A stretch of 11,775 nt of DNA from Clostridia bacterium (lineage in GTDB: Bacteria; Bacillota; Clostridia; Oscillospirales; Acutalibacteraceae), in NCBI GenBank assembly GCA_017462405.1, contig JAFTRF010000114.1, forward strand, positions 1-11,775, written 5' to 3'. The notes beneath the pieces are model-generated. The model saw only the letters and a list, made by a program, of their open reading frames with translations, searched no databases and was not told the DNA's origin. The position numbers and the translations under genes were made by a program. Within the stretch, counting starts at the first letter, position 1; every line of letters begins with the position of its first letter. Of this stretch, positions 868 to 9,741 are shown one piece after another.

Positions 868-1662
868 TCAGCGGCAGATGGGAGCCAGGTCATCTTCCTT
901 CAGCCCAAGCAGATTGGCGATGATGTCTGCATTGGGGTAGAAGTCGTGCTGCTTGTTGTCGTGGGAGTCGCTGCCGAAGGTAAACTTGCAGCCGTAGTCC
1001 TTTGCCAGCGAGAACATCCGCATGTGGCAGTCATCGGCGATCTGCTGCGGCGTCATATTTTTGGAATAGGCCACATTGATCTCAAATGCGATATTCTTTT
1101 CCGCCGTTTTGTCAAACAGGCGCTTGAAGGTATCGTCGGGGATCATTTCGATAAGGATTTTCGGGTCAAAGGGCATCAGACAGACATCGAACTGATGCGC
1201 CATGGCGGTGATGTAGCGGCTGACCTTGCTGTTTAGGATATCCTCGTAGGCCTGCACCATGAATTCGACGTGCTTGTCGTAGTTGGTGATATATTCCTTG
1301 GGCATGATCATGTGGGTGTGGGAGTTGGGGACCACGATGAAGTCAAACTTTTCGGCTTCAGCCTCGGTGATGGCGACCTCCCGGCGGGGTGTGTGGTACT
1401 CCGTCTCACAGCCGAAGTACAGCTGCAGACCAGGTTCATTGACCTTTGCCAGTTCTGCTTTCAGCTGGGCATTGTGCTCGAAGGGATGTGCGCGGTAGAA
1501 GCCACGGGCACCCGGAATATTGCCGTCACCGAAGTGGTCGCTGAAGCCGATTTTCTTCAGGCCCAGCTTTTTGGCGGTGGCAACGTAATGCTCCACCGTT
1601 GCAGAGTCCTGTCCGCAGATGGAATAATGGGTATGTACATGGAAGTCGTGGGTGATTTTCAT
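868..1662 (-). CDS. PHP-domain metal-dependent phosphoesterase (histidinol-phosphatase family)
   Basis: 264-aa ORF. N-terminal HVHTHYS plus downstream SDH..GCE..H..H..FGSDSH motifs are typical of the PHP fold. Strong RBS (GGAGGGAG) lies 8 nt upstream of the ATG at 1662. Confidence 0.8.
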   Translation of the reverse strand: MKITHDFHVHTHYSICGQDSATVEHYVATAKKLGLKKIGFSDHFGDGNIPGARGFYRAHPFEHNAQLKAELAKVNEPGLQLYFGCETEYHTPRREVAITEAEAEKFDFIVVPNSHTHMIMPKEYITNYDKHVEFMVQAYEDILNSKVSRYITAMAHQFDVCLMPFDPKILIEMIPDDTFKRLFDKTAEKNIAFEINVAYSKNMTPQQIADDCHMRMFSLAKDYGCKFTFGSDSHDNKQHDFYPNADIIANLLGLKEDDLAPICR

Positions 1663-1719
1663 AAAAGCTCCCTCCGTAGTTCGTATTTCCGGTGCCGCAG
1701 TACGCTCCGGTCTGCTTTT

Positions 1720-1748
1720 ATTATAGCAGAAAAATAAATATCCTGCAA
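1720..1748 (-). promoter_or_regulatory. Sigma-70-type promoter for the PHP gene (-35 TTGCAG, 17-bp spacer, -10 TATAAT, read on the - strand)
   Basis: Reverse complement of 1720-1748 reads TTGCAG-N17-TATAAT. It sits about 60 bp upstream of the PHP start codon. Confidence 0.6.
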
Positions 1749-1778
1749 CAGTTTTCTGCTATCCTTGCTATTTTCTGC
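1723..1778. promoter_or_regulatory. Candidate operator: perfect 11-bp inverted repeat ATAGCAGAAAA (1723-1733) / TTTTCTGCTAT (1752-1762), plus a third half-site copy TTTTCTGCGAA (1771-1781)
   Basis: Seen directly. The left arm overlaps the -10 of the PHP promoter. The third copy lies in the spacer of the WYL-operon promoter. Confidence 0.55.
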
Positions 1779-1792
1779 GAATGGTGTATAAT
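1765..1792 (+). promoter_or_regulatory. Sigma-70-type promoter for the WYL regulator operon (-35 TTGCTA, 16-bp spacer, -10 TATAAT)
   Basis: TTGCTA 1765-1770 and TATAAT 1787-1792. It is followed by RBS GGAG (1815-1818) and the ATG at 1827. Confidence 0.6.
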
Positions 1793-1826
1793 AAATAATA
1801 TATTCCAGACGAAAGGAGTGTGTACG

Positions 1827-3080
1827 ATGTCTGTCTATCGGGAGCTGATCAAAAATTTTGAAAAAATCCGTAAAATCATGCGTGAGTTTTACGTCTACGG
1901 CTTCCGCAACCGGGAGGAATACCGCGGCAAAAGTGCCCGCTCCTACGACGATGAACGCCGCCGGCTGGAAAGCTGGCTGGGCAATCATATGCGTTTCGTA
2001 CATACCCCGGAAGGAAAAAATGTATTCATCTCCATCGACAGCCGAACCGAACCGTGCAATCCCTTGTATCAGGCATGGAAGGCCAAAAGCTTTACCGACG
2101 GCGACATTACCTTGCATTTCATTTTGTTCGATATTCTGCATAATCCGTCGGTGATGCTGTCCCTGAAGGAGATCCTGACGGCGGTGGACTCTTATCTTTC
2201 TGCAACCGGCAGTGCGATGGTCTTTGACGAATCTACCGTCCGCAAAAAGCTGAAGGAGTATACCGAACTGGGGCTGATTGTGGGCGAAAAATCCGGAAAA
2301 AAGCGGATGTACCGTCGCGCCGATGCGTTTCCGGACGAACTTCCGCCCGATGTCCTGCATTATTTTTCTGAAGCCGCACCGTGCGGTGTCATCGGGTCGT
2401 TTTTGCTGGACGGCCGGCCGCCGATGGACGGTTGCTTTGGTTTCAAGCATCACTACATTACTTCTGCAATGGACAGCGAGGTGTTGGCAGACCTTTTTTC
2501 CGCCATGCAGGAAAAGCGTATTGTCACGGTGTCCAATCTGAGCCGTCGCGCCGATGAACCGAAGCGGATGCGCATCATTCCACTGCGGGTGCTTATCAGC
2601 GTGCAGAGCGGACGGCAGCATCTGATGGCGTATCACCCGGAAAACAACATGATCAAGGCCTTCCGGGTGGATTACCTGTCCGATGTCCGTCCGGAAGAAG
2701 TCTCACCGCGTTTTGATGAACTGCGGGCCGAGCTGGACTGGATGCAGACGCGGATGTGGGGTGTGACCGTCCGCGGACGTACCGGCATCCCGGCCCGGAC
2801 GGAACACGTGGAATTTACCGTACGGGTCAAGCCCGGAGAGGAGCATATCATCCAGCGGCTGGAGCGGGAAAAGCGCGTTGGCTATGTGGAGCAGCTGGAC
2901 GAGCAGACGTGGCGATTTACGGCGGATGTGTACGACAGCGGCGAGCTTCGTCCGTGGATCCGGTCGTTTCTGTGCCGCATCAGCAGCCTGCATTGCTCCA
3001 ACCGTGCGGTGGAAAATCAATTCCGCAATGATCTGGACGCAATGTACCGGATGTACGGCATCGGGGAGGAAGGGACATGA
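1827..3080 (+). CDS. Transcriptional regulator with unknown N-terminal domain, winged HTH, WYL domain and WCX-like C-terminal domain (PafB/PafC-like)
   Basis: The ORF track starts at 1692, but the first ATG with an RBS (GAAAGGAG, 8-nt spacer) is 1827, giving 417 aa. wHTH-like segment SLKEILTAVDSYL..VRKKLKEYTELGLIV. WYL-domain signature RMRIIPLRVLISVQSGRQHLMAYHPENNMIKAFRVDYLSDV. WCX-like C-terminus ..DSGELRPWIRSFLCRISSLHCSNRAVENQF. Stop overlaps the next start (ATGA at 3077-3080). Confidence 0.75.
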   Translation: MSVYRELIKNFEKIRKIMREFYVYGFRNREEYRGKSARSYDDERRRLESWLGNHMRFVHTPEGKNVFISIDSRTEPCNPLYQAWKAKSFTDGDITLHFILFDILHNPSVMLSLKEILTAVDSYLSATGSAMVFDESTVRKKLKEYTELGLIVGEKSGKKRMYRRADAFPDELPPDVLHYFSEAAPCGVIGSFLLDGRPPMDGCFGFKHHYITSAMDSEVLADLFSAMQEKRIVTVSNLSRRADEPKRMRIIPLRVLISVQSGRQHLMAYHPENNMIKAFRVDYLSDVRPEEVSPRFDELRAELDWMQTRMWGVTVRGRTGIPARTEHVEFTVRVKPGEEHIIQRLEREKRVGYVEQLDEQTWRFTADVYDSGELRPWIRSFLCRISSLHCSNRAVENQFRNDLDAMYRMYGIGEEGT

Positions 3081-3982
3081 TCTTTCATGAGATTCATTCG
3101 GTATATTACCGTACCGTGGGGAAATTACTGCGCGCCCTGCTGGTCGGCGTGTCGTCCGAAGCAGATTTACGGCGCATCATACAGGAGAATGCTTTTGAAG
3201 AAAGCATCCTGACGATTCTGCCGGCACTGAAGGAAGGCAAATGGCCATTGATGCGCCCGGACCGGACGACGCCTCTGCGGCATCCGCCGACCCAGCCGCT
3301 GACCCTGCTGGAAAAGCGTTGGCTGAAGGCCATCCTGCTTGACCCGCGTATCCAGTTGTTTGATTTATCCGTACATGGGCTGGAGGCGGTGATGCCGCTG
3401 TTCACCACGGCGGATTACTGCATCTACGACCAATACACCGACGGCGATCCGTACACGGATGCCGGGTATCAGGAGCGCTTCCGGCGGATCCTGTCTGCGG
3501 TACGGGCAAAACAGCCGCTGAAACTGGAAGTAGAGTGCCGCCGGGGCGGAACGGAATGCCTGACGGTATGTCCTGCCCGGTTGGAATACTCCGAAAAAGA
3601 CGACAAGTTCCGGTTGCGCTGCGGCGGTGCCCGGCGCAAGGTCATCAACCTGGCGCGCATTGTATCCTGTGTCCCGGCGGATCCGGAGGGGAGTTTTGCT
3701 GCACCGCTGCCGCTTGTCAAACGAAGCGTTTCGCTGAAGATCCGGAATGAACGCAATACCCCGGAGCGGGTACTGCTCCATTTTGCCCATCTGGAAAAGC
3801 AGGCCGTACGGGAAGACGACGGTCGTTATCTGGTGCATCTCCGCTATGATGCGGAGGACGAAACTGAAATGCTCATCCGTATACTGAGTTTCGGCCCGAT
3901 GGTCGAGGTTGTTGCCCCGGAACGCTTCCGGAATTTAATCATTGCACGGCTGAAAGCACAAAAAAGCTGCGGACCAATCTGA
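3077..3982 (+). CDS. Second, paralogous WYL-domain / WCX-domain regulator, translationally coupled to the first
   Basis: 301 aa. RBS GGAGG lies 7 nt upstream. WYL-like core LTVCPARLEYSEKDDKFRLRCGGARRKVINLARIVSCV. Clear WCX-type C-terminus RYLVHLRYDAEDETEMLIRILSFGPMVEVVAPERFRNLIIARLKA. N-terminus MIFHEIHSVYYRT.. resembles the MSVYRELI.. start of the first gene. Confidence 0.7.
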   Translation: MIFHEIHSVYYRTVGKLLRALLVGVSSEADLRRIIQENAFEESILTILPALKEGKWPLMRPDRTTPLRHPPTQPLTLLEKRWLKAILLDPRIQLFDLSVHGLEAVMPLFTTADYCIYDQYTDGDPYTDAGYQERFRRILSAVRAKQPLKLEVECRRGGTECLTVCPARLEYSEKDDKFRLRCGGARRKVINLARIVSCVPADPEGSFAAPLPLVKRSVSLKIRNERNTPERVLLHFAHLEKQAVREDDGRYLVHLRYDAEDETEMLIRILSFGPMVEVVAPERFRNLIIARLKAQKSCGPI

Positions 3983-3999
3983 GTTCGCAGCTTTTTTTC
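3962..3999 (+). terminator. Rho-independent terminator at the end of the WYL operon
   Basis: Stem AAGCTGCGGA (3964-3973) / TCGCAGCTT (3985-3993), followed by TTTTTTT. The stem overlaps the last codons of the second WYL gene. Confidence 0.75.
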
Positions 4000-4420
4000 C
4001 GTGATTTTTCCAGATGGATGCGATAAAATAATCCTGCAAGGTCACTTCATGTGGTGCAGTCCACCGCACCATGGTACGTCCGGCGCTGCCGCGCACGTAT
4101 GCCGAAGGATTTTTGCACTTGGAGCGGGTTCGAATCCCGCCCGTAATGCGTTGGATCGCAATTGTGCCCTGACCCGGCACACGCCGTGTAACAACGGCTC
4201 AATGATTTATGTGAATGCGGCCGCGCCGCCCCGTACGGAACTCTTGCGGTATCCGACGAGGCAGTACGGCGACAGCCTTGTCCCGGAATCTCCCCGCTGT
4301 GTGACACCGGCAGCCAGAAGTCCAGACTTCCCGCTGCCGGACGATCCTCCGGGCATTCCGGGCCGCTCCGCCGTATGTGCGTCCGCAATCCGCTATCACC
4401 CTCAAGGAGGTATATATATT
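4000..4420 (+). ncRNA. Candidate structured non-coding RNA or long 5' leader upstream of the SPFH-rtcB genes, containing a tRNA-like T-arm
   Basis: About 420 bp with locally elevated GC and no RBS-preceded ORF. GCGGG-TTCGAAT-CCCGC (4124-4140) is a canonical tRNA T-stem-loop (GGTTCGAATCC). Several further hairpins follow: GGTGC..GCACC 4053-4070, TGTGCC..GGCACA 4163-4182, GCCG..CGGC 4183-4199. Strand and exact ends are not determined. Confidence 0.35.
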
Positions 4421-5518
4421 ATGAAAAAGATCATCATCAACGAAAACCAGCGCGGTTTCCTGTTTAAAAACGGTAAGTATGTCCGGATGCTGTCTGCCGG
4501 CAAATATTATCTGTTCGGTGGCCGGGAAATCGAAATCGTATCTATGGAACAGCCCATCGGTTCTGCCCGGTGCGCCTTGAACACCCTGCTGGCTGACCCG
4601 AACATTTCCGCATCTGCGGCTGTCGTCGAAGTCGGGGATCAGCAACTGGCACTCCACTTCGTCAACGGTCAGTTTGCGGAGGTGCTCCGCCGTGGCACGT
4701 ATGCCTATTGGTACGATCCCGACCACCACGCGTTTCAGCTGGTGGATATTTCCGCCCAGGAGGTCGGTGCGGACGTTCCGGAATACATTTTCAGCAAGAT
4801 CCCGCTGTCGTGGTACACCCGGATCGAAGTGGCAGAATACCAGAAAGCGCGCCTGTACGTTAACCAGAAGTTCGTGCGTCTGCTGGATGCGGGCACGTAC
4901 TATTTCTGGAAAAACGGCGCAAAAGTAGACGTAGGCTATGTGGACACCCGTCTGACCCAGCTGAACATCACCGGTCAGGAAATCCTGACCCGCGATAAGG
5001 TTGCCTTGCGGATCAACTTCGTTTGCCGCTATCGGGTGACCGACTATATAAAAATCGCCACCGAAATCGACGACTTTGCCGAGCAGCTGCACGTCACGGC
5101 CCAGCTGGCCCTGCGGGATTATGTCGGCAAGTACAAGCTGGACGAAATTCTGGAAAACAAAGAGGAGCTTTCCCGGTTTGTCTTTGACCGGCTGAAAGCA
5201 GAGGAGCAGGCGTTGTTTGTGGAAATCGTGGATGCCGGCGTCAAGGACATCATCCTGCCCGGCGAGATCCGCGACATCATGAACACCGTCCTGATTGCTG
5301 AAAAGCGGGCGCAGGCCAACGTCATCACCCGCCGCGAGGAAGTCGCGTCTACCCGTTCGCTGCTGAACACTGCAAAGCTTATGGACGAAAACCAGACGCT
5401 GTATAAACTCAAGGAACTGGAGTACATCGAGCGCATCTGCGAAAACGTGGGCACCATCCAGCTTAACGGCAACGGAGACGTGCTGTCGCAGCTGACCGGC
5501 TTGCTCCGGAAAAGCTGA
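4421..5518 (+). CDS. SPFH / band-7 (stomatin-prohibitin-flotillin-HflK/C) domain protein, soluble, with a triplicated N-terminal motif
   Basis: RBS AAGGAGG with a 10-nt spacer and the ATG at 4421, giving 365 aa. The ORF track extends to 4001, but that N-terminal extension is not protein-like. SPFH core: KVALRINFVCRYRVTDY..LALRDYVGKYKLDEIL..FVEIVDAGVKDIILPGEIRDIM..AEKRAQANV. No hydrophobic N-terminal helix. Confidence 0.85.
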   Translation: MKKIIINENQRGFLFKNGKYVRMLSAGKYYLFGGREIEIVSMEQPIGSARCALNTLLADPNISASAAVVEVGDQQLALHFVNGQFAEVLRRGTYAYWYDPDHHAFQLVDISAQEVGADVPEYIFSKIPLSWYTRIEVAEYQKARLYVNQKFVRLLDAGTYYFWKNGAKVDVGYVDTRLTQLNITGQEILTRDKVALRINFVCRYRVTDYIKIATEIDDFAEQLHVTAQLALRDYVGKYKLDEILENKEELSRFVFDRLKAEEQALFVEIVDAGVKDIILPGEIRDIMNTVLIAEKRAQANVITRREEVASTRSLLNTAKLMDENQTLYKLKELEYIERICENVGTIQLNGNGDVLSQLTGLLRKS

Positions 5519-5567: not shown

Positions 5568-6776
5568 ATGATTGAAATTACAGGAAAATACAATTCCGCC
5601 GTGTGCTATACCGATCAGGTGGAGCCGGAAGCATACAAGCAGATACTGACGGTATGCAATGAAGAAGCCTTTCAGCACAGTAAAATCCGCATCATGCCTG
5701 ACGTTCACGCCGGAAAAGGCTGTACCATCGGCACCACGATGACCATCACCGACCGGGTCGTGCCCAACATGGTCGGGGTCGACATCGGCTGCGGCATGTA
5801 TACGGTTTGTCTCGGACAGACCGACATTGATCTCGCACAGTTTGATGCGGCTGCACACGAGATTCCCAGTGGCCGCGCGGTGTGGCAGGGACGGCAGGAG
5901 AAATTCGACCTGACGGCACTGCGCTGTTTCCGCAGCCTCAAGGATACCAAACGGCTGGAGCGCAGCCTCGGTACGCTGGGCGGTGGCAACCACTTCATTG
6001 AAATCGATGTGGACGAGGACGGCAACAAGTATCTGATCATCCACTCCGGCAGCCGGAATCTGGGGACACAAGTTGCGGAAATCTATCAAAATTTCGCCGT
6101 TGACCTCAACTGCGGCAAGGAAGTCTACTTCCAGCGCCGCGATGAAATCATCCGCACCTACAAGGCCTCCGGTCGTAAAAGTGAAATTGCCTCCGCGCTG
6201 AAGGCATTGGCCAAAAGCTTTGTGTCTCAGCCGCTGACCATGCCCAAGGAGTTGTGCTATCTGTATGGCTCGCTCATGGATGATTATCTCCACGACCTGG
6301 CCCTCTGCCAACACTTCGCCCTGCGCAACCGCGAGAAAATGGCCGAAATCCTGTTAGCAAAGACCGGACTGCAGGGCGGCGAAGCTTTCCAGACCATCCA
6401 CAATTATATTGATGTGGATGAGATGATCCTCCGCAAGGGTGCCGTGTCGGCAAAGGTGGGGGAGAAACTGCTGATTCCGATCAATATGCGTGACGGCAGC
6501 CTGCTGTGTGTCGGCAAGGGCAACCCGGACTGGAATTGCTCCGCGCCGCACGGTGCTGGACGGTTGCTGTCCCGCTCGATGGCGCGCGAACAGCTGACCA
6601 TGGCAGAATATCAGGCCGAGATGGCAGGCATTTACACGACCTGCGTTTCGGCGGGTACGCTGGACGAATCGCCCATGGCCTACAAGCGCATCGACGACAT
6701 CGTGGCACATATCGATCCCACTGCAGAGATCATTGCGCGTCTCCGACCGATTTACAACTTCAAGGCATCGGAATAA
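5568..6776 (+). CDS. rtcB: RNA-splicing ligase RtcB (3'-phosphate / 5'-OH RNA ligase)
   Basis: 402 aa. Motifs IMPDVHAGKGCTIGT, GVDIGCGM, GGGNHFIEI..IIHSGSRNLG, CSAPHGAGR and ESPMAYKRIDDI align with the E. coli RtcB active-site motifs. RBS AAAGGAG with an 8-nt spacer. The 49-bp gap after the SPFH gene has no terminator, so the two are likely co-transcribed. Confidence 0.95.
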   Translation: MIEITGKYNSAVCYTDQVEPEAYKQILTVCNEEAFQHSKIRIMPDVHAGKGCTIGTTMTITDRVVPNMVGVDIGCGMYTVCLGQTDIDLAQFDAAAHEIPSGRAVWQGRQEKFDLTALRCFRSLKDTKRLERSLGTLGGGNHFIEIDVDEDGNKYLIIHSGSRNLGTQVAEIYQNFAVDLNCGKEVYFQRRDEIIRTYKASGRKSEIASALKALAKSFVSQPLTMPKELCYLYGSLMDDYLHDLALCQHFALRNREKMAEILLAKTGLQGGEAFQTIHNYIDVDEMILRKGAVSAKVGEKLLIPINMRDGSLLCVGKGNPDWNCSAPHGAGRLLSRSMAREQLTMAEYQAEMAGIYTTCVSAGTLDESPMAYKRIDDIVAHIDPTAEIIARLRPIYNFKASE

Positions 6777-6905: not shown

Positions 6906-7646
6906 ATGGCAGCAACATCAAAGAAACGCAGAAAAGGTCTGCGGATCACGCTCATTTCCATTTTGTTGGTATTCACACTGTTGACCGGCGGTGTGCTTGT
7001 AGTCATGCTGAATCCCTGTCCGGCTGATCAGTCAGCCATAGAATCCTTTTTACCGGAGGCCGCAGACGGTGTCACCGACGGCTCGTATACGGTTTTTGCA
7101 CCGGATGATCCCGTAGCCGGATTCATCTTCTATCCCGGCGCGCGGGTGGAGCACGAAGCGTACATTCCGCTGATGCAGGCGTGCGCCGCAAAGGATATTC
7201 TATGTATTCTGGTGGAAATGCCTATGGATTTCCCGTTGCTGTGGGGCAATGCCGCTGATGGGCTACAGGACAAATATCCGGAAATCGACCAATGGTACAT
7301 CGGAGGGCATTCGCTGGGCGGCTATATGGCGGCCGGTTATCTGGGCGACCACGCAGACGATTATGTTGGATTGATTTTGATGGCTTCGTATACGGAAACC
7401 GATCTGAGTGGCACCGGGCTGGATGTCCTGACCATTTACGGCAGTGAGGATAGCGTTCTGAATAAAGAACGCTACGAAAAGGGGCTGACCCTGCTGCCGG
7501 AAGGCTATACGGAAATCGTCATTGATGGCGGTTGTCATGCATATTTCGGGATGTACACCGGACAGGATGGCGGCGATTTGCCGGTGACAAACGCAGAACA
7601 GCTTCTTATGACCGCTGATGCCATCCGGACATTCGTCGAAAAATAA
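6906..7646 (+). CDS. Membrane-anchored alpha/beta-hydrolase (putative esterase/lipase)
   Basis: 246 aa. N-terminal basic stretch plus hydrophobic helix (LRITLISILLVFTLLTGGVLVV). Nucleophile elbow GGHSLGG. Downstream conserved Asp and His (GSEDSV, GGCHAY). Confidence 0.8.
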   Translation: MAATSKKRRKGLRITLISILLVFTLLTGGVLVVMLNPCPADQSAIESFLPEAADGVTDGSYTVFAPDDPVAGFIFYPGARVEHEAYIPLMQACAAKDILCILVEMPMDFPLLWGNAADGLQDKYPEIDQWYIGGHSLGGYMAAGYLGDHADDYVGLILMASYTETDLSGTGLDVLTIYGSEDSVLNKERYEKGLTLLPEGYTEIVIDGGCHAYFGMYTGQDGGDLPVTNAEQLLMTADAIRTFVEK

Positions 7647-7727: not shown

Positions 7728-7803
<76 letters not shown>

Positions 7804-7804
7804 T

Positions 7805-7843
7805 AAAACGGTAGCAATCGTAATGGGTTCTACCGTTTTTTTG
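7805..7843 (+). terminator. Rho-independent terminator after the tRNA
   Basis: Stem AACGGTAG (7807-7814) / CTACCGTT (7830-7837), followed by TTTTTTT. Confidence 0.8.
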
Positions 7844-7847
7844 TTCA

Positions 7848-7918
7848 GAAAATATTGCACGAATACGTCATGGAAATATCACATGAGCGAATATTTGTTT
7901 CATGAAAATATCGCATGA
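7848..7918 (+). repeat. Three direct copies of a roughly 15-bp motif (GAAAATATTGCACGAA, GGAAATATCACATGA, GAAAATATCGCATGA), plus an inverted partial copy; candidate integrase arm-type sites
   Basis: Copies at 7848-7863, 7872-7886 and 7904-7918. Inverted copy AAATATTCGC (reverse complement of 7887-7896). They lie 45-115 bp 3' of the tRNA end. Confidence 0.45.
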
Positions 7919-8002
7919 ACACTTTATGCAGCTTTTTCAGAACAAAAAAAGAAGTCACCGCACCTCCCTTGCAGGTCTGCCAAAACGATGCAAGAAAAAT
8001 GG

Positions 8003-8030
8003 TTGACTTCTCAAAGACCTGTGTTATAAT
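8003..8030 (+). promoter_or_regulatory. Orphan near-consensus promoter with extended -10 (TTGACT, 16-bp spacer, TGtTATAAT)
   Basis: TTGACT 8003-8008, TG at 8022-8023 and TATAAT 8025-8030. No downstream protein-coding gene on this strand. Confidence 0.7.
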
Positions 8031-8036
8031 CGAATC

Positions 8037-8272
8037 ATGATTGATTACAACACAAGTAATTTCCGGGGAGACGCATGAAGTTCCATTCTTGCAGTTTTGG
8101 TGCAAGGAGGTACAAAGCCGTCCGAAAGGTTCGCCAAAACCATTCGGGAAGCGTTTGCGTATTCTCTGTATGAGACGCACGAGAATTCCGTTCTTGCACT
8201 AGCCATGCAGAACAGAATTGTAAGCTGATCTGTCGGTCGCCAAACCTTCAGACGGTGTTCGGGCGTTTCTTT
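8037..8272 (+). ncRNA. Candidate small RNA of about 235 nt between the tRNA and the integrase gene; direction converges on the integrase
   Basis: Bounded by the promoter at 8003-8030 and a U-tract (8266-8272) after an imperfect hairpin. Internal hairpins CCGAA-GGTT..AACC-TTCGG (8109-8137) and TGCGT..ACGCA. Only 13-aa and 32-aa ORFs, each without a well-spaced RBS. Confidence 0.4.
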
Positions 8273-8395
8273 TTTTGTCTAAAAATGGACTTTTCCTGCC
8301 TGCCACAGCATGAAAAGAAACATTGTACTCTTACTATACACCCCTTTTGAATAAAAAGCAATAGTTCAACATTGATTTTTGAGATTTTGCGAAGA

Positions 8396-8520
8396 TTTTT
8401 GCGCGCAAAAAGCCCTGCTCCGTAGGCCAGAAATGCTTTCCAATACAGCAGATCCCGGAATAATAAGAGTTCCAGGAGTCGTGATGGAGGCAAATCAAGC
8501 CTTGTCGGAGCAGAGCTTTT
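8396..8520. repeat. Long inverted repeat AAAAGCCCTGCTCCG / CGGAGCAGAGCTTTT closing an 83-nt loop, adjacent to the perfect palindrome TTTTTGCGCGCAAAAA (8396-8411); probable terminator region between convergent transcripts
   Basis: Arms at 8407-8422 and 8506-8520, with 14 of 15 bases complementary. On the - strand the structure directly follows the integrase stop (8525) and is followed by a T-run. Confidence 0.5.
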
Positions 8521-8524
8521 TATT

Positions 8525-9382
8525 TTATTCAAAAACTTTGAGAAGCTGATTCTTCAGATAGTCTTGGTCAGGGTGTACATAGCGACGGGTAGTGAACGCT
8601 GGATTGGTATGTCCGAGAATCTTAGACAGGGCGGTGACTTCAATACCTTTTTCAATCGCGCGTGTAGCGAAGGTATGACGATATACATGCGTGGTCAGGT
8701 TCGGCAGATTGGCGGCTTTCCGCAGCCGAAGATAAAGCCCTTTCAGTACCTCTGTGCTGATCTGCTGGGAAGTGGAGGTCTGAAATACATATGCATTCTG
8801 AGGTATACCATCATGGTGAAGATCAGTCAGCAGCGCTACCATTCTGGAGGTCAGCGGAACACGACGGACACCGGCTTCGGTCTTGGAGGTCTGAATATTG
8901 AGCCAGCCCTGACACAGATCGACATCGCTCCATTTCAGATTCTGCAACTCAGATCTGCGAAGCCCGGTGTACAGGAAAAAAATCACAACATGACCCAACG
9001 GGTCGTTGAGGGCAGCCTTTTCAAGTCGCGCCTGTTCGTTTACAGTCAGACCATCTACATTTTTTTCACATGCGTTTCGGGGTACGGTCAATCCGTTGCT
9101 GGGGGAGGACGTAATCAGGTTGTTCTTTACCGCATAACACAAAGACGACGTAAAGATACTACGGATTTTTTGCAGTGTGGATTTGGATAAATGTGTGGAG
9201 AGCGTATTCAGGGCATCCTGCAACATTACGTGTTTGATTTCCTCGATTTCAGTTTGCATCAGGTCAGGAAAATGCTTATGCAGGGTTTTGATGAGGTGGA
9301 CATACATGGTTGTGGTGGAGGTTGTAACTTTTGGACGCATATATATATCCATCCATTGTTGCAGCCAATGCGAATAGGTCAT
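8525..9382 (-). CDS. Tyrosine site-specific recombinase / phage-type integrase
   Basis: 285 aa. N-terminal SAM-like region TYSHWLQQWMDIY..STTTMYVHLIKT. Catalytic motifs GLRRSEL, HVYRHTFAT, LGHTN and RRYVH (R..HxxR..H..Y). Confidence 0.9.
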   Translation of the reverse strand: MTYSHWLQQWMDIYMRPKVTTSTTTMYVHLIKTLHKHFPDLMQTEIEEIKHVMLQDALNTLSTHLSKSTLQKIRSIFTSSLCYAVKNNLITSSPSNGLTVPRNACEKNVDGLTVNEQARLEKAALNDPLGHVVIFFLYTGLRRSELQNLKWSDVDLCQGWLNIQTSKTEAGVRRVPLTSRMVALLTDLHHDGIPQNAYVFQTSTSQQISTEVLKGLYLRLRKAANLPNLTTHVYRHTFATRAIEKGIEVTALSKILGHTNPAFTTRRYVHPDQDYLKNQLLKVFE

Positions 9383-9590
9383 GAAAAATCCGTCCTTTCG
9401 TAAAATAGAATGGGGTTTCTTTCAGCATCTTATCAGATTTTACCAAAATAAGAGACGATTTTTTCAGTTGACGAACAACAGAGAGAAGCTCAGTAGATAA
9501 CTTTTCACTGACAATCTCAAAGTGCGCCTCACATGCGTTCAAGAAATCAAGGCCGGATTCGTTTGCGCTAATATCAGAAACAAGTTGCAT
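9276..9590 (-). CDS. Hypothetical small protein overlapping the 5' end of the integrase gene
   Basis: 104-aa ORF. Strong RBS AAGGAGGG with a 7-nt spacer. A perfect sigma-70 promoter lies upstream. The last roughly 35 codons overlap the integrase start in another frame (107 nt). That overlapping portion looks low-complexity, so the true C-terminus is uncertain. Confidence 0.4.
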   Translation of the reverse strand: MQLVSDISANESGLDFLNACEAHFEIVSEKLSTELLSVVRQLKKSSLILVKSDKMLKETPFYFTKGRIFHDLFALAATMDGYIYASKSYNLHHNHVCPPHQNPA

Positions 9591-9628
9591 GCATATTTCC
9601 CTCCTTAAAAAGAGAATATTTTACAAAA

Positions 9629-9657
9629 ATTATACCGTGTGTTTTTTGCTCTGTCAA
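9629..9657 (-). promoter_or_regulatory. Perfect consensus sigma-70 promoter (TTGACA, 17-bp spacer, TATAAT) on the - strand, driving the small ORF and integrase
   Basis: Reverse complement of 9652-9657 is TTGACA. Reverse complement of 9629-9634 is TATAAT. Spacer is 17 bp. Confidence 0.75.
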
Positions 9658-9666
9658 ACGAACGAG

Positions 9667-9741
9667 CCAGTTCTGAAGGGTAAACGCGAGGTTTCCGACA
9701 AAATTCACAGAATGTTTACGCTGCCTCCCAGTTCTGAAAGG
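9667..9741. repeat. Two direct repeats CCAGTTCTGAAGGG / CCAGTTCTGAAAGG, 61 bp apart, just upstream of the -35 of the - strand promoter
   Basis: Copies at 9667-9680 and 9728-9741, 13 of 14 identical. Candidate regulator or recombinase binding sites. Confidence 0.5.

Follow-up and report, generated by a model that had tools for sequence, protein, structure and literature searches.

The window analyzed here (the whole stretch of DNA, 11,775 nucleotides) is a complete 11.8-kb contig, JAFTRF010000114.1, of a Clostridia metagenome-assembled genome, and the site of the finding is the 438-nucleotide (nt) gap that separates the gene for the WYL-family regulator WYL2 from the gene for an SPFH/Band-7 protein, or slipin, which is in turn followed by the gene for RtcB. 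The plus strand of this gap encodes one multidomain RNA of ~350 nt (~4036-4386), in which a 5' junction domain, a tRNA-like module, and a 3' rod follow one another, and relatives of this RNA lie upstream of SPFH genes in many other genomes. A Pfam search over the ten main open reading frames (ORFs) of the window matched DegV, PHP, WYL, WCX, Band_7, RtcB, hydrolase, integrase, and sortase domains and left one ORF unmatched. The genes that frame the gap, and those farther out, are as follows.

15-770: DegV gene (Pfam)
868-1662, minus strand: PHP phosphoesterase gene (Pfam)
1692-3080: WYL1, a WYL-domain regulator with WYL and WCX domains (Pfam)
3077-3982: WYL2, a WYL-family regulator with WCX only (Pfam)
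4421-5518: SPFH/Band-7 slipin gene (Pfam, Band_7)
5568-6776: RtcB gene (Pfam)
6906-7646: alpha/beta hydrolase gene (Pfam)
7728-7803: tRNA-Ala(GGC), the only tRNA detected in the window by ARAGORN and the Rfam tRNA model
8525-9382, minus strand: tyrosine integrase gene (Pfam)

A three-domain RNA between WYL2 and SPFH

A sequence-only reading of this DNA had described the gap as a GC-rich, ORF-less region lying between a terminator and the SPFH start, and in most respects this description stands. The GC content is 0.56-0.64 over positions 4001-4400 versus 0.37-0.46 in other intergenic stretches (1600-1900, 7800-8500, and 9300-9700), and a perfect hairpin followed by a U-run (3960-3998) ends the WYL1-WYL2 operon and forms the upstream boundary of the RNA locus. 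The hairpin sequence, together with the CCGTGAT that follows it, is kept at the same site in four related loci (L005, L050, L081, and L083). A terminator scan missed this hairpin, probably because A/U runs lengthen its stem, and a permissive Rfam scan gave hairpin-type chance matches at 3952-4008.

The gap is ORF-less in the sense that it is noncoding, not in the literal sense: a frame opened by GTG 4001 is continuous with SPFH (4001-5518), and minus-strand ORFs are present as well. We regard the ORFs in the gap as artefacts of its high GC content. An N-terminal coding extension of SPFH from GTG 4001 was ruled out because the SPFH homologues listed are almost all 365 to 371 amino acids long and cover the query from ATG 4421, because the in-frame open stretch 5' of SPFH has a median length of 11 codons in relatives, and because the nearest relatives differ in the gap by 1- and 2-nt insertions and deletions, which are not multiples of three. 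The features that we assign to the locus, all on the plus strand, are these.

3960-3998: terminator of the WYL1-WYL2 operon, hairpin AAAAAAGCUGCGGAC / GUUCGCAGCUUUUUU then U-run, with its 5' arm within the WYL2 coding end
4003-4029: putative promoter region, with the block GTGATTTTTCCAG conserved within the clade and the -10-like TAAAAT at 4024-4029
4036-4117: 5' domain, with closing helix P0 around hairpins P1b and P2
4036-4048 with ~4105-4117: P0, GCAAGG..ACUUC with GAAGG..UUUGC, from the fold and a few compensations
4051-4054 with 4061-4064: P1b, GUGG / CCAC, identified by eye from alignments
4071-4102: P2, with inner GGC-GCU-GCC at 4082-4090, from covariation in relatives mapped onto the window
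4124-4140: T-arm mimic, GCGGGTTCGAATCCCGC, a 5-base-pair (bp) stem GCGGG/CCCGC with loop UUCGAAU
4147-4160: D-arm mimic, UGCG-UUGGAU-CGCA, 3' of the T-arm and equivalent to GCCA-GUGGUU-UGGU of relatives
4164-4180: hairpin hp1, GUGCC-CUGACCC-GGCAC
4183-4198: hairpin hp2, GCCGU-GUAACA-ACGGC
4217-4386: 3' rod domain, with outer helix GCGGCCGCGC (4217-4226) with GUGCGUCCGC (4377-4386) and core 4263-4377
4404-4410: Shine-Dalgarno sequence AAGGAGG
4421-4423: SPFH start codon ATG

For comparison we used 80 genome loci with SPFH orthologues at 65-76% identity, mostly from Oscillospiraceae, Acutalibacteraceae, and unclassified Clostridia and including the isolates Ruthenibacterium lactatiformans and Oscillibacter valericigenes, and added three short contigs whose SPFH is 82-87% identical. 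Two covariance models were built without the window's own clade, R1 for the tRNA-like module and R2, from 51 relatives, for the 3' domain.

The T-stem-loop that the sequence-only reading had picked out (GCGGG-TTCGAAT-CCCGC, 4124-4140) is present on the plus strand, and its loop carries the signature U54 U55 C56 R57 A58 with the G53-C61 closing pair. The window contains two copies of the T-loop core GGTTCRANYCC, this one and that of tRNA-Ala, versus 0.10 occurrences expected by chance. In 48 canonical relatives the order of elements is a T-arm, a directly closed acceptor-like hairpin of 6-8 bp, 1-2 nt, a D-arm (GCCA-GUGGUU-UGGU), and a tetraloop-capped stem. Across these 48 sequences the T-loop positions are invariant and the T-stem covaries (C-G to U-A in 8, G-C to A-U in 9), as do five of the acceptor-like hairpin's six pairs and pairs 75-86 and 77-84 of hp1. 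For the module as a whole, 94.8% of alignment cells are paired versus 28-51% when the partners are slid, and there are 106 double-sided changes versus 34 in shuffles. The relatives keep the T-loop U54-U55-C56-R57-A58, its closing G-C pair, and the GG of the D-loop, the T-loop and D-loop GG being what a tRNA's elbow is built from. The sequence 3' of the T-arm cannot supply a normal acceptor stem, since it folds back on itself into a hairpin whose pairs covary strongly.

In the window, R1 matches positions 4120-4179 with 29.6 bits (E about 2e-6; next best match in the window, 6.5 bits), while the true tRNA-Ala scores 4.2 bits. The acceptor-like hairpin is deleted in this alignment (19 to 4 nt), so that CCGUAA (4141-4146) remains between the T-arm and the D-arm, on the placement of which R1 and the YrlA model of Rfam agree. 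The D-loop UUGGAU is invariant across the four members of the clade, namely the window and its three nearest relatives, from which the window differs in having additionally lost a ~45-nt two-hairpin insert before the T-arm. The acceptor-like hairpin was lost independently in L065. The sequence-only reading had seen no acceptor, D, or anticodon arms; it was mistaken about the D-arm. We had considered hp1 as an anticodon-arm mimic and rejected it because its cap, a 7-nt loop (CUGACCC) in the window, is a 5-nt loop in the clade relatives and a GNRA or UUCG tetraloop in the others. All told, about 60-75 nt of the RNA are tRNA-like, out of 350-430 nt in the three domains together.

A second T-arm-like hairpin (UGGGGUUCAACUCCCCA) lies 23-42 nt upstream of the main T-arm in many relatives (L001, L003, L006-L008, L020, L022, L026, L028, L030, L031, L038-L040, L043, L052, L054, L061, L071, and L080) and is absent from the window. 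It is preceded in some of them (e.g., L040) by a GNRA-capped stem, which suggests either an old tandem duplication or a further, partial tRNA-like unit with its elements in standard order.

Hairpin P2 of the 5' domain comprises 11 pairs in 52 sequences, follows the family pattern GCG.GUGCAC..GGN...NCC....GUGUAUGC, and covaries at pairs 71-89 (AU 33 / GC 19) and 77-81 (AU 26 / CG 20). Compensations in P0 are few (GCAGG/CCUGC, GCAGA/UCUGC, and ACAGG/UCUGU), and this helix probably encloses P2 and a second small hairpin. A long-range pairing of the 5' GCAAGG with a CCUUGC in the 3' domain was tried and rejected, as U-to-C changes in the 3' motif were compensated in only 2 of 14 cases; the partner of GCAAGG is instead the nearby CUUGC after P2.

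Transcription would begin at about 4035-4037 from a promoter at ~4003-4029, a placement that draws on the conserved sequence of this region; in relatives an extended -10 box (TGGTAAAAT) stands at a fixed distance before the motif UUGCAAGG. The two direct GATTTTT motifs noted in the sequence-only reading (4003-4013 and 4108-4118) do occur at those positions, but they are no conserved repeat: the first falls within the conserved promoter region, and the second T-run is specific to the window, its relatives having GGATCACTTGCAC. The predicted +1 site in relatives (e.g., L012:880-890) holds CTTGCAAG, an 8-bp DNA palindrome, where the window has CCTGCAAGG (4033-4041). This palindrome is largely explained by helix P0, and it could also be an operator for the WYL regulators.

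In the family, the 3' domain forms an elongated, irregular rod that bears a side hairpin (GGAUACC) and one branch. Of its 34 pairs, 31 show changes on both sides, and 88% of cells are paired versus 35-45% in slid controls. R2 matches the window at 4263-4377 with 37.2 bits (E about 3e-10; next best, 9.3 bits), a core that contains the conserved motifs GCCUUGUC, GCCAGAAG, UUCCCGC, and GGCCGC, and the outer helix around it was derived from sequence and folding. Two elements of the canonical family, the GGAUACCG hairpin and helix 3, are gone from the window's clade, which keeps the other 3' helices by compensation (e.g., CUGAAAAC/GUUUUCAG to CCGGAAU/AUUCCGG). The domain's internal loops show high conservation and look like binding pockets. 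A small ORF in this domain (ATG, 41-42 codons, in L012 and L034) was discarded, since its frame shifts relative to GGAUACC in L001 and the window has no ATG there, as read by eye.

Folding z-scores of -3.4 for the plus strand and -4.6 for the minus strand do not discriminate between the strands, and we assign the RNA to the plus strand because of conserved G-U pairs in the tRNA-like module and in P2, where the invariant G-U pairs would become A-C on the other strand. In the folds and alignments examined we saw no terminal stem between the 5' and 3' ends of the RNA; the domains close locally. The lineage-specific losses of parts indicate that the RNA is modular and that the window's copy is a minimal version of it.

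Conservation and linkage to SPFH

In most related loci of sufficient length the cassette is the same, WYL1 and WYL2 being followed by a gap of 440-700 nt, SPFH, and RtcB. Of 86 loci, 82 have the T-loop motif 5' of SPFH on its coding strand, and conservation spans the region from the extended -10 box to ~25 nt before the ribosome binding site. Such conservation, with covariation in the aligned orthologous regions, rules out strain-specific junk and overturns the suggestion, made in the sequence-only reading, that the T-arm is a degenerate tRNA relic.

A reverse search, in which a pattern from the 3' domain alone was scanned against metagenome contigs, listed 80 stretches, and 29 of these were true R2 matches (52-111 bits). 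A substantial SPFH match lies directly 3' of the RNA in 27 of the 29 copies; of the other two, one is on a contig that ends too soon and one has a 24-residue SPFH match only. The linkage of the RNA to SPFH is exclusive. In the copy with the short match (L094:3094-4312), the 3' domain scores 107 bits and only the first 24 SPFH residues are recognizable despite 1.1 kb of downstream sequence, which may mean that the cassette has decayed or been rearranged.

Most metagenome copies without an extra ORF have the start codon 38-52 nt past the R2 match, measured from its 3' end, and SPFH begins ~680 nt past it in those with one. Eight genome loci (~10%) also have an extra ORF of 206 amino acids (205 to 209 among loci) between the RNA and SPFH, and in these the RNA stays at the head of the operon. 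This ORF, seen at L041:3366-3983 and also in L016, L045, L046, L063, L064, and L070, takes the RNA-proximal start position; it has no Pfam or NCBIfam match at its usual length, and a longer form (L056:2939-3961) is fused to a DUF4275 domain. A phage origin was considered and set aside, as 50,697 phage records held no SPFH homologue and seven IMG/VR pattern matches were not members of the family.

Slipins with 33-35% identity are present outside the Clostridia as well, in Burkholderia, Photobacterium, Citrobacter, and some strains of E. coli, and leaders with T-arms precede proteobacterial slipin operons at the following places.

L086:4540-5000: enterobacterial
L084:4460-5003: enterobacterial
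L085:4480-5010: Burkholderia

The order in Citrobacter, for which annotation exists, is a divergent rtcR, a sigma-54-type promoter, a leader of ~290 nt, the slipin gene, and a nucleotidyltransferase gene, with RtcB not adjacent. E. coli STEC639 has a slipin gene and then a nucleotidyltransferase gene, as in Citrobacter, and a sigma-54-type promoter sequence is found in both enterobacterial leaders. R1 finds the T-arm in these leaders, and in that of E. coli a closed hairpin and a UGGUU loop follow it (22.1 bits). The Burkholderia leader has two T-arms, one of them in a standard-order cloverleaf (L085 4666-4738) in which GAAA replaces the anticodon loop and which ARAGORN calls "tRNA-???". We make no claim of homology between the 3' domain and the proteobacterial RNAs, as a visual likeness (GAUGCCGUG, CAGGCAAAAAGG) was not confirmed by R2. 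In gene order, the constant partner of the RNA across phyla, regulators, and enzymes is SPFH, rather than the regulator or RtcB.

Relation to known RNA classes

Covariance-model scans matched the gap to no Rfam family, while our own R1 and R2 models do match it. When the window and 23 other loci, related or distant, were scanned at gathering thresholds, the only Rfam matches were genuine tRNAs, a lysine riboswitch, and STnc430, all elsewhere, and permissive scans of the gap returned T-arm fragments, hairpin noise, and a weak YrlA alignment. Neither ARAGORN nor the Rfam tRNA model (RF00005) found a tRNA in the window's gap. A tRNA or pseudo-tRNA of standard order was rejected on the grounds that ARAGORN makes no such call in the window and makes one in 3 of 60 relatives, and that the 3' flank of the T-arm pairs locally.

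The sequence-only reading had also proposed a Y-RNA-like or tRNA-mimic noncoding RNA. This was borne out to the extent that the gap holds a conserved structured RNA with its tRNA-like arms in permuted order, but the RNA is not YrlA, and the T-arm is a small part of it. YrlA (Rfam RF02553) aligns at 4092-4193 with 15.1 bits (E 1.3-4.3) against a gathering threshold of 69, has no match up to E 10 in L012, a canonical relative, and has none at gathering in 20 related loci. YrlA's tRNA-like domain has the order T-arm, closed acceptor-like stem-loop, D-arm, and in M. smegmatis YrlA is encoded upstream of its protein partner in one precursor (Chen et al. 2014, RNA 20:1715, PMC4201824). The module of our canonical relatives has the same permuted order, with strong covariation, and the window has a T-arm, 6 nt, and a D-arm, with the acceptor-like stem-loop deleted. 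YrlA, too, belongs to RtcB RNA-repair operons, and its weak cmscan alignment gives the T and D arms of the window the same assignment. There are also differences. The RNA of the window is three to four times longer than YrlA and shows separate 5' and 3' domains where YrlA has a Ro-binding stem of its ends. No rsr (Ro60/TROVE) gene adjoins it, Pfam having found no TROVE (Ro/Rsr) domain among the ten largest ORFs of the window, and its partner would be SPFH.

A closer counterpart is b7a-tRNA, a Band-7-associated noncoding RNA "strongly resembling an authentic tRNA" that, in the summary given by Wang et al., was predicted by Burroughs and Aravind in 2016 (Nucleic Acids Res 44:8525) and proposed to be functionally redundant with YrlA, a proposal there described as not validated (Wang et al. 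2018, bioRxiv 10.1101/312249). As far as that summary goes, the RNA of the window shares with b7a-tRNA its position next to an SPFH gene and RtcB on the same strand and its tRNA-like features; a T-arm with the T-loop consensus occurs both in the window and upstream of proteobacterial slipins, and the Burkholderia cloverleaf fits the published description. The window differs from the summarized class in that it has no complete cloverleaf, only T and D arms in permuted order. The 2016 abstract reportedly presents a new tRNA-like molecule as the cognate noncoding RNA of SPFH/Band-7 modules. Compared through the summary of Wang et al., the RNA of the window is best placed in the predicted b7a-tRNA class, as a new and minimal member from the Clostridia.

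A tRNA-like module within a longer RNA, where it could bring in tRNA enzymes for processing, is also known from mascRNA and MEN-beta (Rfam RF01684), which match the window at 4109-4147 with 14.2 bits, a chance-level score. Those RNAs are eukaryotic, with standard-order cloverleaves that are cleaved by RNase P and RNase Z, whereas here the acceptor-like stem is closed or absent.

The b7a-tRNA class is absent from Rfam 15, our literature searches (on b7a-tRNA, on Band-7 in combination with tRNA-like RNAs, and on SPFH in combination with RtcB) turned up no experimental work that follows it up, and the noncoding-RNA discovery surveys among the matches listed make no mention of rtcB. A 2026 paper describes an SPFH gene inside a Pseudomonas rtc locus. 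As far as we have checked, the extent and architecture of the RNA are uncatalogued.

Possible roles of the RNA and its neighbors

To our knowledge, the substrates and cofactors of bacterial RtcB are largely unknown, and we know of no characterized RNA cofactors of such operons other than the Y RNAs bound by Ro. The RNA described here would be a second, uncatalogued class that travels with a different scaffold, a soluble stomatin-like SPFH protein. The pairing occurs in many gut and rumen Clostridia, and a possibly related T-arm RNA stands before slipin genes in Enterobacteria and Burkholderia. The RNA is also far larger and more elaborate than the term "tRNA-like gene" conveys, and its permuted elbow, like that of YrlA, has either been kept or arisen independently.

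We would give an even chance to the proposal that this RNA, co-transcribed with SPFH, acts as the RNA partner of that protein in the way that Y RNA does with Ro. The WYL pair would switch the operon on, and the RNA would then be made together with RtcB and a cytosolic stomatin-like SPFH. It may next be cut free of the mRNA, in the way that the rsr precursor of mycobacteria yields YrlA and YrlB by trimming, and would serve as the RNA subunit of an SPFH particle, with its 5' and 3' domains binding the SPFH oligomer and its tRNA-like elbow offering a docking surface for RtcB, for other tRNA-handling enzymes, or for damaged tRNA; the parallel would be the tethering of Ro to an effector by Y RNA. 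The SPFH protein of the window (P0001, 100% identical over 365 amino acids) starts directly with the SPFH fold, aligns to stomatin, solved as 16-chain assemblies, and looks soluble. In a more specific form, which we offer tentatively, the RNA would be a dedicated subunit of a cytosolic SPFH cage with RtcB or a nucleotidyltransferase, that is, a bacterial RNA-repair ribonucleoprotein whose elbow docks damaged tRNAs or enzymes and whose 5' and 3' domains constitute a new protein-binding architecture. Such a particle might be conceptually like the Ro-Y RNA complex or like vault particles with their small RNAs.

The main rival, suggested also by the sequence-only reading and in our view less likely, is that the RNA is instead a purely cis-acting leader, a folded 5' untranslated region that binds a protein (SPFH, RtcB, or WYL), a small ligand, or an RNA fragment and thereby sets the translation or stability of the SPFH-rtcB mRNA, for example by a feedback that occludes the ribosome binding site, with no role for a free RNA. 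The Shine-Dalgarno sequence and ATG of SPFH lie ~18-35 nt past the last RNA helix with no terminator between the RNA and the coding sequence, as a leader would have it, and the conserved internal loops of the 3' domain would suit it as binding pockets. An expression platform is missing, however. The terminator scan found no terminator-like site at 4000-4420, and the consensus folds contain no terminator/antiterminator alternative and no conserved helix that sequesters the Shine-Dalgarno sequence, the spacer between it and the last helix being poorly conserved, A/U-rich, and unpaired; protein-mediated control remains compatible with this absence. At ~350-430 nt in three domains the RNA is far above typical leader size, and its pairing with slipin persists under RtcR / sigma-54 and with a different enzyme. 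This persistence across regulators and enzymes would seem to point to a partnership with the protein rather than to a regulatory device of one operon, and we favor the ribonucleoprotein over the leader because of it and because no expression platform is present.

Several observations nevertheless weigh against our preferred explanation. The RNA fills the whole 5' untranslated region and is always the first element of the transcript, and its distance to the first start codon is a constant 38-52 nt even where the extra ORF comes first, as would equally hold for a cis-acting leader. Because the RNA is necessarily co-transcribed with SPFH, the present comparison does not separate a ribonucleoprotein from a leader. 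A consensus promoter scan found nothing, so that the proposed promoter is placed by conservation. In one Acutalibacteraceae subclade (L002, L005, L029, and L050) most or all of the tRNA-like module has disappeared and the 5' and 3' domains remain, and the window's clade does without both the acceptor-like hairpin and the GGAUACCG hairpin; given these losses, whatever the elbow does would be dispensable in some lineages. R2 does not detect the proteobacterial RNAs, and the case for homology across phyla is consequently confined to the T-arm region (R1, about 22 bits).

The proximity of a tRNA mimic to a ligase that seals cleaved tRNAs raises the further idea of a sentinel or decoy, in which the module would bait tRNA-targeting ribotoxins or be a substrate of RtcB, with cleavage and re-ligation of the leader reporting damage and tuning the operon. 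The literature suggestion of YrlA as a competitive inhibitor of anticodon nuclease is in keeping with this idea, which we nonetheless consider unlikely. The stem that takes the anticodon position ends in GNRA or UUCG tetraloops in relatives, or in nonconserved 5- to 7-nt loops in the window's clade, and offers no anticodon-loop target; Salmonella YrlA is not cleaved by anticodon nuclease; the module is lost in some lineages; and in Citrobacter the slipin is followed by a nucleotidyltransferase, not RtcB. There is very little to recommend the remaining idea that the gap is nonfunctional, being either a tRNA's 3' half that decayed after an integration event had left it there, or an N-terminal extension of SPFH from GTG 4001. 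The window does have a tRNA-Ala and an integrase 3.3-5 kb downstream, and its frame from 4001 is open into SPFH. Against this stand the compensatory conservation in about 80 species and 29 metagenome contigs, the near-absence of a match between R1 and the true tRNA-Ala, and, for the extension, the homologue starts at ATG 4421, the closed frame, and the non-triplet insertions and deletions described above.

If the ribonucleoprotein proposal is true, a widespread class of large structured RNA, present in Clostridia and perhaps in Proteobacteria, is missing from Rfam. With the comparative data given here and with cultured carriers available (Ruthenibacterium lactatiformans, Oscillibacter valericigenes, and some E. 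coli and Citrobacter strains), the 2016 prediction becomes directly testable. R1 and R2 could seed an Rfam family, which would be of practical use, as annotators at present leave ~450 bp blank at such loci or risk a spurious ORF or pseudo-tRNA.

The surroundings of the RNA offer some further observations. WYL1 and WYL2 are arranged in tandem with a 4-nt overlap (ATGA), a layout that resembles the PafB/PafC pair, and the WYL pair precedes the RNA in most related loci; no sequence relatives of WYL1 or WYL2 were matched in PDB. Three SPFH homologues (P0002, P0004, and P0076) are ~638 amino acids long, about twice the usual length, with 44-59% identity across the whole query, and may be tandem-duplicated or fused slipins. 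Downstream of the cassette, tRNA-Ala(GGC) is followed by AT-rich DNA (GC 0.38-0.46) and the minus-strand tyrosine integrase gene, and this stretch (7728-9382) is probably the border of an integrated element just 3' of the repair cassette.

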